From a virus (lineage: Duplodnaviria > Heunggongvirae > Uroviricota > Caudoviricetes): DNA of 47,880 nt. Positions within the stretch are counted from its first letter, which is position 1; every line of letters begins with the position of its first letter. The position numbers were made by a program. Shown here piece by piece: positions 3,001 through 6,000 of the stretch. The stretch spans positions 1-47,880 of IMG/VR virus record IMGVR_UViG_2880412407_000003; one strand, written 5' to 3'.

Positions 3001-6000
3001 CAACTGATTGGCGTCAGGCTGGCTGATATTGGCTGCCTGCATAATTTTCTTTACTTCGTCAGCGGTAACTTTTACCGGTTCTGGTTGTTCAGAATTTTGT
3101 GCGGTATTTGCATTTTGCGGTAAGCCTGTGTATGTGCCATTTTTTCGGGCGAAATATTCTTCTTTCGTGATTTCAGTAGCCCCTGCAGCCAGTGCCTTAT
3201 CCAGACCAGAAAGTTTGTTTGCGCGACCGTATTTTTCGCTATCCTTGTCGGTGAAGAGGAAGTAGAACGGCCCTTCACGCTCTACAGATGGTTCGACTTC
3301 CACTTTGCATTCGGTTTTTTCGTTGTCCGGAATTGCCGTTTCCACTGCATCAGTTTCTGGTACTGGCGACGAGAGAGTATCAGTTGCGCTCTGATTTCTT
3401 CCTTCATCTTCAAACACGCCCTTTGTAGTCAGGTATTCAGTAATGTATTTGTTCAGTGCCACAGGATCTTTGTGAATGTCGATCGGACGTTCACGGACAA
3501 GGCCAAAAATAGTCTGGCGGTCGTAGCGAAGGGCATCAGGCTGTTTGCGCATTGATGCCGAGATACGCTTCCAGTCTTCGCGGTCGTTGTCGATAACTTC
3601 TTTTTTTGCCCAGCGATGGATGCTGCCGTCAATGTTTCCGGCATCCACATCACCAGGCCAGAGAGCGTAGGCCAGTTCGTCATCCAGTGTTTTCCATGTC
3701 TGCTTGTATTCGCGATGAGTGGCAGCAATGACCGGGCTGATTTTTCCTGTTGAATTTTCAGTGTTCTGTTGATTGGCTCTGGCGCGGGCGAGATCAACAA
3801 CAGACGTGTATTTTCCGGTTTCCTTGCGTTCACCTTCGCGACGTTTTTTCCAGATGCGCATCTCTGCCTGAATTTCGGGCCATTTGGCACCAGGCTTACA
3901 TTTATGCTTAACCCACCCGATGGCATGCAGCTTAAGCTCCGGATACATGGCGTTAACTTCTGGCATTTTCATCAACGCTTCAACGATATGTCCGTCGAAT
4001 GTTGCCATGTCTTCCTGCAACAATTCCTGCGCGCTAATCACCATATCAACGGTGATGTTTTCACATGTGTCGAACTTAACCATGACAGCGTTCTGTACTT
4101 CAAGGGACAGTTTGTCAAAATTGACGTTCATCGGTTCGGATTCTGGTTCGACCGGAATAAAGGAAGCGGATTCCTCATCCCAGCGGTTTTCCTGCATATA
4201 TTCGGTATCCCAGGAGTCGATAGCAGGGCGGGGCATGCCGGGTTTATCCTCGCAGATAAGAAATTTATAAGCGCAGTCCTGAGCAGCCGGATATTGCTCC
4301 AGGAATTGCCAGGTAAATTTGGCACGGGCGCGGCGTTCGTCACCGGCTTCAATGGCAGTGGCTACAGCAACTGCACCTTCTTCCTTTATTGCCTGTTCGT
4401 CCGGAATGGCGGCGCAAATAAAGACTTTACTCATTTTGTTTTAACCTCATGACAGATTTAAGGATGAACAAATCCCTGCCATTGCTGGCATATAAGAATC
4501 AAATCTGATGTATTCATTAAGCTGAATGTCGTATTGTGGCAGTTATTTTATTACTGCTCACCATGACTCTGCTTTTACAGGTAAACCATCACGACCAAGG
4601 AAGACTTTAATCATGGTTTCCTTAATACAGTGTTGTGTGGAAAAATCACGAATATAGAGCCGTTGTTTTTTAATGTTGTTTACCGAAGCAATATATGTTC
4701 TTCCTTTATGAATAACATAATCACCGGGAGTCACGCACTGACGAGGAATCTCATCAGTTCCGAAGTGATGAGCAATCATAATTATCTCCATTTTTACAAA
4801 TGAACTTTGTTGATGCGGTGCCTGGTGCCTCCAGGTGACGTTAACCAGTTAACAATTAACGCCGGATACAGAGAACCCACCCATAACACTGTTTTTGGTT
4901 TTAACTGTTCCGCGTGCGCTCAGCCGCATTCACCGCATCACAAAACTCACTTTAAAAAGGGCGGCAGACCAGTCACGGAGTAAAACTGATACCGCCAAAC
5001 GTCACCAGAAAATTGATAACAGAGGGCGTTGCAGCGGGGTTGTCACTTAAGCGTATGGTCAACCTGACAACCCGGTGTCCTCAACGGGGGAAGGAATAAC
5101 CCCTCCATACTTACCGCCGCGCCATTTCGCGGATTGCCACAACCGGAAGCGCACGGTCGACGAAAATTTAACGACAGGCTATCTATGAACCAGCTACCTC
5201 GCCGTGCGCTTTCGCGTTATGGTCTGACTTTTCAGGGAAATATCCTTTCAGTAAACTGTCAGTGCCGTATGCTCACCCGTGTCCGGCGCACGCACTCCAC
5301 CTCACCCGTGGAGAACTCCTTAATTACCAACCTTAGCTTCGTTGGTTAGCTATTAACGCGGGTATGTAATCATTCTGGCAATGCTTAATGCCGCTGCTTT
5401 TTCCAGCCTGGTGATATCCTGCTCCAGAGCGGACAGATTTTCAGCCTGCTTTTAACCACGTCAGGCGAGGTGGTATCCTCTGAGGGGTCTGTTACTCGAG
5501 AGGAAATTGGTTATGAATACAATCAAGTTTTCTTGCCCAGAATGTGGTGGCGAAGTCTTTGACACATCCTTTAAGCCGCAGGGCTCTGACAGTTTCGCGG
5601 GAGCCATCTGCAAAAATTGTGGTCACCTTGTAACTGAAGATGAGTCCTCGCAGTTCGATGACGAAATCGTTGACAATATCTTCGGTGCACTCACCAGAGA
5701 CTTTCTGAAGTAAAGGCGCATACCGCTTAGTTACCGCTCTGATAACTCTTACCTGTCCTGCAATGGCGCTGATGTCAATATAAAGCGCCATTGCTGCTTC
5801 TTTGCCGATCCCGGGATGCCTTCCATTCTGATGTTTGACTTCGCCCACTGAGAAACCCTCTGTTTCCCCTTAACGCCGGGGTAGCGGAACAAAAACCTGC
5901 TGCATAGTTATTAAAGTTGAACCCTGCCGTCATGTTCATACGCCTCGGGCTGGCTACTTAACCCCTGACCACTGCCGGGTAACTCGAAGTATTTCCCTGC

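Follow-up and report, generated by a model that had tools for sequence, protein, structure and literature searches.

The window, the whole 47,880-nucleotide stretch of DNA that was analysed, belongs to a lambdoid prophage of a STEC host, E. coli O121:H19, whose genome holds three copies of DicF. The minus strand at 4954-5011 reads UUUCUGGUGACGUUUGGCGGUAUCAGUUUUACUCCGUGACUGGUCUGCCGCCCUUUUU and consists of a 53-nt core (5011-4959) and a U-run (4958-4954). The Rfam covariance model for DicF (RF00039) matches 4959-5010 on this strand over its full length (model positions 1-52 of 52) with 74.2 bits against a gathering score of 48 and with an E-value of 1.2e-14 in the whole window, where it is the single match of this model, and 5e-16 in a local search. 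This confirms the sequence-only reading, which had proposed a DicF homolog at this place and had named the Rfam search as its check. Three further Rfam matches in 4300-6300 (CRISPR-DR41, snoU49 and mir-4703) lie far below their thresholds and were treated as chance. In the alignment with the K-12 Qin DicF, 52 of the 53 nucleotides are identical and the sole difference within the RNA is a change of C43 to G (position 4969), located in a 3-nt bulge of the terminator hairpin, at a position which is variable in the Rfam consensus. Nucleotides 1-42 are the same as in K-12, including the 5' seed for xylR, pykA and manX (UUUCUGGUGAC...), and the seed UUUCUGGUGACGUUU is unpaired in both the MFE and the centroid structure. 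The compound hairpin followed by UUUUU folds as an intrinsic terminator (-17.0 kcal/mol vs -15.9 kcal/mol in K-12), as had been claimed from the sequence, so that the Rho-independent hairpin and U-run of an Hfq-binding 3' end are both present. Over about 440 nt of upstream flank and about 190 nt of downstream flank, identity to K-12 Qin is 97-99%, and the setting is also that of DicF, in an early operon and 3' of a ydfC remnant and a conserved leader. Judged from its sequence, the element is a genuine and functional-looking copy of the prophage sRNA DicF.

The 3' side of the DicF terminator hairpin is predicted to pair with the ribosome-binding site of ftsZ, in line with the pairing of the DicF 3' region with ftsZ described for K-12 (PMC5069750). 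With the K-12 ftsZ leader as target, the predicted duplex has an energy of -39.4 kcal/mol as compared with -38.5 kcal/mol for K-12 DicF, the target interval (-28 to +26) is the same for the G43 and K-12 forms, and the cofold ddG is -14.2 here and -14.4 for K-12. The C43G change is thus predicted to be neutral within the half of the molecule that pairs with ftsZ.

Downstream of DicF on the same strand lies a small ORF at 4558-4779, the 73-aa product of which is 81% identical to KilR of the K-12 Rac prophage over 73 of 73 residues (E 2e-47). The NCBIfam profile NF008465, 'FtsZ inhibitor protein' (PRK11354), aligns with residues 1-73 on profile positions 1-73 with 140 bits, against a curated cut-off of 92 bits, and RefSeq annotates the ORF as kil. 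A Kil-like ORF had been proposed at 4558-4791; the ORF stands, and is of KilR type, while translation is likely to begin at the 4779 ATG and not at that of 4791, with a Shine-Dalgarno GGAG (4789-4786) six nucleotides upstream. Pfam, which we take to include a model of lambda Kil, gave no family for this ORF at E <= 0.01, and identity with lambda Kil was rejected, the match being instead to the unrelated Rac KilR family. DicB as the downstream gene was likewise rejected, as a tblastn search of the whole window with the 62-aa DicB found no coding sequence and nothing better than E = 1.1. The ORF is therefore, as far as its sequence tells, a Kil-type division inhibitor and more precisely a homolog of Rac KilR, a protein that interferes with FtsZ function and is known to block FtsZ-ring function and cell division (PMC10798246). 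Together, the Rfam match and the KilR identity support the suggestion that the prophage has two potential cell-division inhibitors at this locus. In RefSeq, dicF is unannotated in these STEC genomes and the product name given for kil is "cell division protein FtsZ".

Upstream, the minus strand carries a PL-like sigma-70 promoter (TTGACT-16-TAAACT, 6032-6059, from a promoter scan) overlapped by an 18-bp dyad operator at 6033-6050, GTTTAnTAAnCAnTAAAC, which recurs at 7019-7036 and 7058-7075 in the PR/PRM region beside the repressor gene. This gene (6636-7007, minus strand) is annotated in RefSeq and encodes a cI-like repressor of 123 aa with weak similarity to the C-terminus of DicA. Behind it on the same strand, in the place which rexAB occupies in lambda, comes a RelB/PaaA2-ParE toxin-antitoxin pair (6144-6615), identified by Pfam matches to PaaA2 and ParE_toxin. 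The assignment of DicF to a leftward early operon is well founded, since it shares its strand with exo-xis-int and lies downstream of a PL-like promoter with an operator shared with PR. The distance from promoter to DicF, given before as roughly 800 bp, is about 1.0 kb (from the end of the -10 hexamer at 6032 to the DicF 5' end at 5011). Between the two, a consensus scan found no minus-strand promoter or terminator; the same scan also missed the DicF terminator itself, the loop of which is above the limit of the scan. No N-like antiterminator was evident.

The interval had been described as holding no assigned gene, which needs correction, as it contains a zinc-ribbon gene, a ydfC remnant and a structured leader. 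Overlapping ORFs on both strands of 5492-5848 are indeed present. On the plus strand, antisense to the early-left transcript, 5513-5713 encodes a CxxC...CxxC zinc ribbon of the ECs_2282 family (NCBIfam NF047912, 57.3 bits, cut-off 37), which is overlapped by a 118-aa minus-strand ORF (5492-5848) with no match in Pfam or NCBIfam. Homologs of the zinc ribbon with 60-70% identity occur in Citrobacter, Klebsiella and Enterobacter, and the substitutions between them fall most often on the third, less on the first and least on the second codon position of the plus frame, with greater amino-acid identity in the plus frame than in the antisense frame for every homolog pair. The in-register antisense ORF nevertheless stays open in all of the 60-70% homologs, and the phage-database homologs of these ORFs are all at least 95% identical and so uninformative for the choice of strand. 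The plus-strand zinc ribbon is better supported, although not overwhelmingly, and the minus ORF is probably not a gene. Next on the minus strand is a ydfC pseudogene with its N-terminus deleted (5353-5451), annotated by RefSeq in the identical sequence from O121:H19; both K-12 and the O157 relative have an intact ydfC. The 341 nt from the ydfC stop to DicF (5012-5352) form an untranslated, highly structured leader, the presumed DicF precursor, with an MFE of -126.4 kcal/mol (z = -3.56, none of 100 shuffles as stable). It is the same leader as in Qin, 97-99% identical to K-12 Qin and O157, and does not differ from K-12 around the place where RNase E is known to generate the DicF 5' end.

The region between DicF and kilR (4798-4953, minus strand) is a structured spacer closed by a helix of 22 bp (5' arm 4953-4931, 3' arm 4820-4798), and the segment 4775-5011 folds with -83.6 kcal/mol (z = -4.36). 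The closing helix is seen in the MFE structure of all 28 distinct spacer variants, and its core covaries in 55 distinct elements, with 73 double-sided cells against 31 +/- 8 in shuffles (0/500). The spacer shares a GGUGAAU...UCACCNGGAGGCACCNGGCACC core and the covarying closing helix with STnc100; the STnc100 model (RF02076) scores 37.7 bits, which is below the gathering score of 47 and covers model positions 26-154 only, and we regard the spacer as related to STnc100 and not as a member by the curated threshold. The helix is likely to be the RNase III site that gives the 72-nt form of DicF. The 'DicB' pseudogene placed by RefSeq at 4806-4889 is part of this spacer; its K-12 counterpart in the alignment lies upstream of the point where dicB starts.

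The spacer also contains the breakpoint of a mosaic. The operon is Qin-like from the truncated ydfC through DicF and Rac-like from the kilR ribosome-binding site onward, with the crossover zone at about 4811-4839, and we attribute the DicF-kilR pairing to recombination of Qin-type and Rac-type operons inside the common spacer. A DicF-like sequence is found in 72% of complete E. coli genomes; DicF adjoining kil is estimated in 1.5-3% of them (80-160 genomes), and the junction is also present in phage Evi and in the IMG/VR locus L112. A more general reading, to which we would give about even chances, is that DicF belongs to a set of interchangeable sRNA 'heads' which share a terminator scaffold and lie upstream of a conserved STnc100-like spacer which is probably cleaved by RNase III and followed by interchangeable small ORFs, such that recombination inside the spacer re-assorts heads and tails, the O121 prophage being one such recombinant. 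Other heads are of the KilS type with a seed identical to that of RprA, or are DicF seeds fused to other hairpins, and the small-ORF tails, some of them known to be toxic, are DicB, KilR and an uncharacterised 94-aa ORF. If general, this would mean that lambdoid phages carry a modular cassette of sRNA, processed leader and small ORF, the parts of which evolve combinatorially. The common structured spacer offers a simple explanation for the swapping of such modules.

In K-12 and EHEC, DicF is made by the action of RNase E, a terminator and RNase III, which give 53- and 72-nt forms, and its targets have been described (PMC5069750, PMC9438474). The identities of DicF and KilR, the structures and the promoter/operator arrangement observed here make it highly probable that this copy belongs to a repressor-controlled PL-type operon of the O121:H19 lambdoid prophage and works along the same lines, with processing, Hfq dependence, targets and phenotype taken by analogy from the K-12 and EHEC work. 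When the repressor is lifted, transcription would start at about 6025, at the PL-like promoter, and cross the antisense zinc-ribbon region, the remnant of ydfC and the 341-nt leader, and RNase E would cut to form the DicF 5' end. The 3' end would be formed either by the intrinsic terminator, giving the 53-58-nt form, or, in read-through transcripts, by RNase III cutting the 22-bp spacer helix, giving a form of about 72 nt. Hfq-bound DicF would then repress translation of ftsZ through its 3' region and repress xylR, pykA and manX through its 5' seed, and in LEE-positive STEC could also activate pchA. The read-through transcripts would carry kilR, the 73-aa product of which would block FtsZ function. 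Since DicF would antagonise FtsZ at the mRNA and KilR at the protein, the operon is expected to act at two levels, parallel to the DicF and DicB pair of Qin. Transcript levels or processing could be altered by the truncation of ydfC or by the convergent gene inside the transcription unit. In Rac, Rho/NusG-dependent termination normally keeps kilR silent (PMC10798246), and such silencing could apply here too. With three DicF copies in the genome, this copy may be redundant.

The alternative that survives best, although we hold it to be rather unlikely as a replacement for this scheme, is that DicF serves in the lysogen, independently of prophage induction, as a regulator of host physiology and virulence (stabilisation at low oxygen, activation of pchA and the LEE, sugar metabolism), division inhibition being a side effect of overexpression. 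Two reviews report that EHEC, with four dicF copies, raises DicF under oxygen limitation, with activation of pchA and repression of stx2A (PMC7873438, PMC9438474), and the K-12 work reports that the toxicity of DicF cannot be put down to its regulation of ftsZ (PMC5069750); the present host, a STEC with three copies, fits this picture. However, the sole promoter signal upstream is the operator-overlapped PL-like promoter, and expression in the repressed state would therefore need leakage, and the fact that DicF is physically coupled to kilR points to a module directed at division. Both roles could coexist. We consider it improbable that the locus is a silent relic in a decaying prophage with no meaningful expression, as might be thought from the truncated ydfC, the IS copies elsewhere in the prophage, the several DicF copies in the genome and the silencing of Rac kilR; the promoter and operators are intact, and so are DicF with its terminator and 341-nt leader, the spacer helix, and the kilR ORF together with its Shine-Dalgarno, the latter elements all being 97-100% conserved, and the same junction occurs in the deposited genome of phage Evi. 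Least credible of all is a re-targeting of DicF by C43G into a functionally distinct variant with weaker ftsZ control or new targets, for the change, which does sit in the ftsZ-pairing 3' region (PMC5069750) and belongs to a rare exact allele (best match in 13 of 3919 DicF-bearing records), affects a variable position in a 3-nt bulge, leaves the predicted ftsZ duplex unchanged in energy or slightly better and does not touch the 5' seed.

The reading of DicF and KilR as a two-level module leaves the current understanding of DicF unchanged. The DicF element is already known and ordinary, its combination with this downstream module is slightly unusual, and novelty, of a mild kind, is limited to the way in which sRNA heads and toxic ORFs are re-assorted around a common spacer. 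The practical value lies mainly in annotation. In this non-O157 STEC the DicF copy is paired with KilR, whereas K-12 and O157 pair DicF with DicB, and this matters when phenotypes of DicF copy deletion or prophage induction are interpreted.

Compared with the dicBF operon of K-12 Qin, the locus has the same DicF in 52 of 53 nt, with the same seed, hairpin, U-run, 341-nt leader and downstream spacer, and DicF likewise follows ydfC in a repressor-controlled early-left operon. It differs in C43G, in the absence of ydfA and ydfB, in the truncated ydfC, in the antisense zinc-ribbon gene upstream, in an immunity region that is not DicA/DicC, and in having kilR downstream where Qin has dicB-ydfD. With kilS-kilR of K-12 Rac it shares the KilR family (81%), the Shine-Dalgarno region and the 3' arm of the spacer helix, and the layout of an sRNA with terminator, a structured spacer and a small toxic ORF is common to both. 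The sRNA slot in Rac is, however, taken by KilS, which shares only the terminator scaffold with DicF, scores 39.1 bits with the DicF model (below threshold) and has an RprA-like seed in place of the DicF seed. The DicF-dicB-ydfD loci of O157:H7 (e.g. the prophage of strain FRIK944 and the PPompW phages) show 99% identity across ParE, the zinc-ribbon gene, DicF and most of the spacer and have the same immunity region and flanking exonuclease gene, but their ydfC is intact and they carry dicB and ydfD in the place occupied here by kilR. Escherichia phage Evi (LR597642.1) differs in that its ydfC, a CDS of 219 nt, appears intact and its DicF is unannotated, and in its RAST annotation the ORF called is the one antisense to the zinc-ribbon gene; its DicF-spacer-kil junction is the same, with 98.5% identity over 454 nt, and an exonuclease gene of the same type comes next.

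The Rfam covariance model for DicF (RF00039) matches the window only once, at 4959-5010 on the minus strand, over 52 of 52 model positions, with 74.2 bits against a gathering score of 48 and an E-value of 1.2e-14 for the whole window. Together with the minus-strand sequence, which itself reads as DicF, this makes the DicF homolog proposed at 4954-5011 (-) in the sequence-only reading real and far beyond chance. The nearly base-for-base match described there also holds, as alignment with the K-12 Qin prophage and an O157:H7 prophage gives one difference from K-12 in the 53-nt RNA (C43 to G, 98% identity), within flanks that are 97-99% identical for about 440 nt on the 5' side and 190 nt on the 3' side. 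In the Rfam structure position 43 lies in a 3-nt bulge of the compound terminator hairpin, where the family consensus is variable, and G43 permits a U·G pair that gives a continuous stem. The RNA does end in a terminator, with a predicted hairpin of -17.0 kcal/mol compared to -15.9 for K-12. According to PMC5069750, DicF binds the ftsZ ribosome-binding site through its 3' region and xylR through its 5' end; duplexes of both alleles with the K-12 ftsZ leader were therefore compared. They are predicted on the same target interval at -39.4 (G43) and -38.5 kcal/mol (K-12), with cofold ddG values of -14.2 and -14.4, and the 5' seed is identical to that of K-12 DicF. Of 5426 complete E. coli genomes, 3911 contain DicF-like sequence, with up to seven copies per genome and three places in the O121 genomes. 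The G43 allele is rare, its exact sequence being the best match in 13 records only.

Chromosomes of O121:H19 STEC strains of E. coli, e.g. NZ_CP022407.1, match the 1.8 kb around DicF at 100% identity, and there the locus is part of a lambdoid prophage, with an exonuclease-xis-int block on one side and a repressor/cro-like immunity region on the other. This DicF copy is already present in sequenced public genomes, simply left without annotation there; dicF is unannotated in all the matching genomes listed.

The ORF downstream of DicF is a kilR homolog of 73 aa, at 4558-4779 (-), whose ATG has a GGAG six nt upstream. Along its full length it shares 81% identity with KilR from Rac of K-12. It scores 140 bits (cut-off 92) with NCBIfam NF008465 'FtsZ inhibitor protein', and is named kil in RefSeq. 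The Kil-like ORF earlier drawn at 4558-4791 was thus right in kind, while its extent is best read as 4558-4779. No Pfam family matches this ORF, and a relationship to lambda Kil is therefore rejected. DicB is absent by tblastn over the whole window, and a RefSeq 'DicB, missing C-terminus' pseudogene at 4806-4889 (-) is rejected, as it aligns to K-12 sequence 5' of the dicB start codon, that is, to non-coding spacer. In the same annotation of 4558-4889 (-), that of NZ_CP022407.1, the kil product is misnamed 'cell division protein FtsZ'.

The combination of DicF and KilR is a mosaic of Qin-type and Rac-type operons. By alignment the window resembles Qin between the ydfC remnant and about 4811, and Rac from about 4839 onward, including the kilR Shine-Dalgarno sequence and gene, and the stretch common to both between these limits, GTCACCTGGAGGCACCAGGCACCGCATCA, is probably the crossover zone. 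The Rac slot equivalent to DicF is occupied by KilS, an sRNA that Bar et al. 2021 (PMC8175672) confirmed on northern blots, in a paper that mentions neither DicF nor RprA. KilS (2901-3003, minus strand, of the Rac locus) scores 39.1 bits with the DicF model (E 3e-7), below threshold; its homology with DicF covers the terminator hairpin and the spacer behind it, but the 5' part differs and contains 16 nt, ATTGCTGTGTGTAGTC, that are the same in the chromosomal sRNA RprA. In an IMG/VR motif scan matching at least 120 phage stretches, every combination was present among Qin/Rac-type spacers: DicF with DicB (about 28 loci), DicF with KilR (one IMG/VR locus, L112, and the window), KilS-type with KilR (six loci) and a non-canonical head, a KilS-like hairpin bearing the DicF 5' seed, with DicB (one locus). 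In some IMG/VR phage loci the DicF 5' seed (UUUCUGGUGA) is joined to another, shorter terminator hairpin without the ftsZ-complementary loop, and in one an RprA-like head precedes a 94-aa ORF (MIPIITPRSD...) in place of DicB or KilR. The DicF-kil junction of the window recurs at 98.5% identity in the deposited phage Evi (LR597642.1). Full-query DicF-to-kil matches fall within about the first 80-160 records, or 1.5-3% of complete E. coli genomes as estimated from the spacing in a 60-row spread listing rather than by direct count; at least 99% identity is found in 13 records with a 312-nt query and in 27 with a 453-nt query. Our literature search found no paper on DicF directly upstream of kilR or on KilS-DicF relatedness. 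We regard the adjacency and the kinship as modest points of phage mosaicism, and give about even chances to a modular head-spacer-tail cassette across lambdoid phages.

The spacer at 4798-4953 (-) has a predicted multi-branch fold with a 22-bp closing helix, AAAGUGAGUUUUGUGAUGCGGUG paired with CACCGCAUCAACAAAGUUCAUUU. Folded with DicF it has z = -4.36 (0/200 shuffles as stable), and each of the 28 distinct variants recovered has the helix in its MFE, with compensatory changes visible e.g. in the IMG/VR loci L073 and L064. Among 55 distinct elements sharing a GGUGAAU...GGCACC core the helix covaries: 81% of cells are paired, double-sided changes number 73, where shuffles give 31 +/- 8 (0/500), and sliding the partner strand makes the score collapse. 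The spacer is a sub-threshold relative of Rfam STnc100 (37.7 bits, threshold 47), of which a full copy (148 bits) lies at 20138-20327 (+) in the late region. The anti-GcvB sRNA AgvB (20328-20389, minus strand, 96.5 bits) directly adjoins this copy, antisense to it. At least 120 phage stretches in IMG/VR contain the motif GGTGAAT...TCACCNGGAGGCACCNGGCACC, with as many as three in one locus. A 72-nt DicF species is described as an RNase III product of the full-length transcript (PMC9438474 and PMC5069750); because its 3' end would fall within the 5' arm of the closing helix, we infer that the helix is an RNase III site. Cleavage at the matching place in the 3' arm would give a kilR mRNA with a short leader.

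The leftward early operon proposed earlier is supported by a PL-like promoter (TTGACT-16-TAAACT, 6059-6032, minus strand) overlapped by an 18-bp dyad, GTTTAnTAAnCAnTAAAC (6033-6050), which recurs at 7019-7036 and 7058-7075 beside the repressor gene. A promoter with the same hexamers (7047-7076, plus strand) faces the cro-like gene, and the dyad layout reads as the expected OL/OR arrangement of an operator-controlled promoter. Between PL and DicF the consensus scan gave no further promoter or terminator on the minus strand, though it also missed the DicF terminator, whose loop is above its limit. Because the repressor (6636-7007, minus strand) has only 123 aa, no Peptidase_S24 domain match and only weak similarity, to the DicA C-terminus, induction may not proceed by RecA-mediated self-cleavage. 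Between repressor gene and promoter, the position of rexAB in lambda, lies a RelB/PaaA2-type antitoxin and ParE toxin pair (6144-6615, minus strand), followed just before PL by a hairpin with 22-nt arms (6079-6125).

The PL-DicF interval, earlier thought to hold no confidently assigned gene, contains a zinc-ribbon gene, a ydfC fragment without its N-terminus (5353-5451, minus strand, RefSeq) and, upstream of DicF, an untranslated leader of 341 nt on the minus strand that is common to Qin and unusually structured (z = -3.56). Overlapping ORFs on both strands at 5492-5848 are indeed present, a zinc ribbon of the ECs_2282 family (5513-5713, plus strand; NCBIfam NF047912, 57 bits, cut-off 37) and a 118-aa ORF in exact in-register antisense to it. 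Annotations disagree, RAST calling the antisense ORF in phage Evi and PGAP the zinc ribbon. The antisense ORF has no family match in Pfam or NCBIfam. In homologs of 60-70% identity from Citrobacter, Klebsiella and Enterobacter, substitutions peak in every pairwise comparison at position three of the zinc-ribbon frame, amino-acid identity is higher in that frame, and four Cys and a VTEDESSQFD block are invariant, which favours the zinc ribbon as the real gene, though not decisively. Both frames are open in homologs of this identity from four genera (L127-L130), and the zinc-ribbon gene opposes the local early operon in 4/4 contexts.

Elsewhere the window carries a sok antitoxin RNA (14005-14179, plus strand, 114 bits) and three late-region tRNA genes (19116-19362, plus strand). 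At 23043-25458 an exact spacing of 1441 bp separates both a pair of IS3-type frameshift pseudoknots (ALIL, each about 120 bits) and the copies of a 300-nt direct repeat (95% identity), which suggests two tandem or nested IS copies within the prophage.

Among prophage sRNAs DicF is a textbook case. Published work describes it from different prophage contexts, with several copies in O157:H7 (PMC7873438 and PMC5069750), and the copy in the window is an already known element. Judging from the K-12 and EHEC literature on processing, Hfq and targets, derepression of PL would give a long transcript, RNase E would generate the DicF 5' end and termination or RNase III the 3' end, and Hfq-bound DicF would repress ftsZ, xylR, pykA and manX and, in LEE-positive strains, activate pchA. 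Read-through would yield KilR, which would interfere with FtsZ (PMC10798246). Since DicF would repress ftsZ and KilR would act on FtsZ, the operon would hit FtsZ at both the mRNA and the protein level, as DicF and DicB likewise do in Qin.
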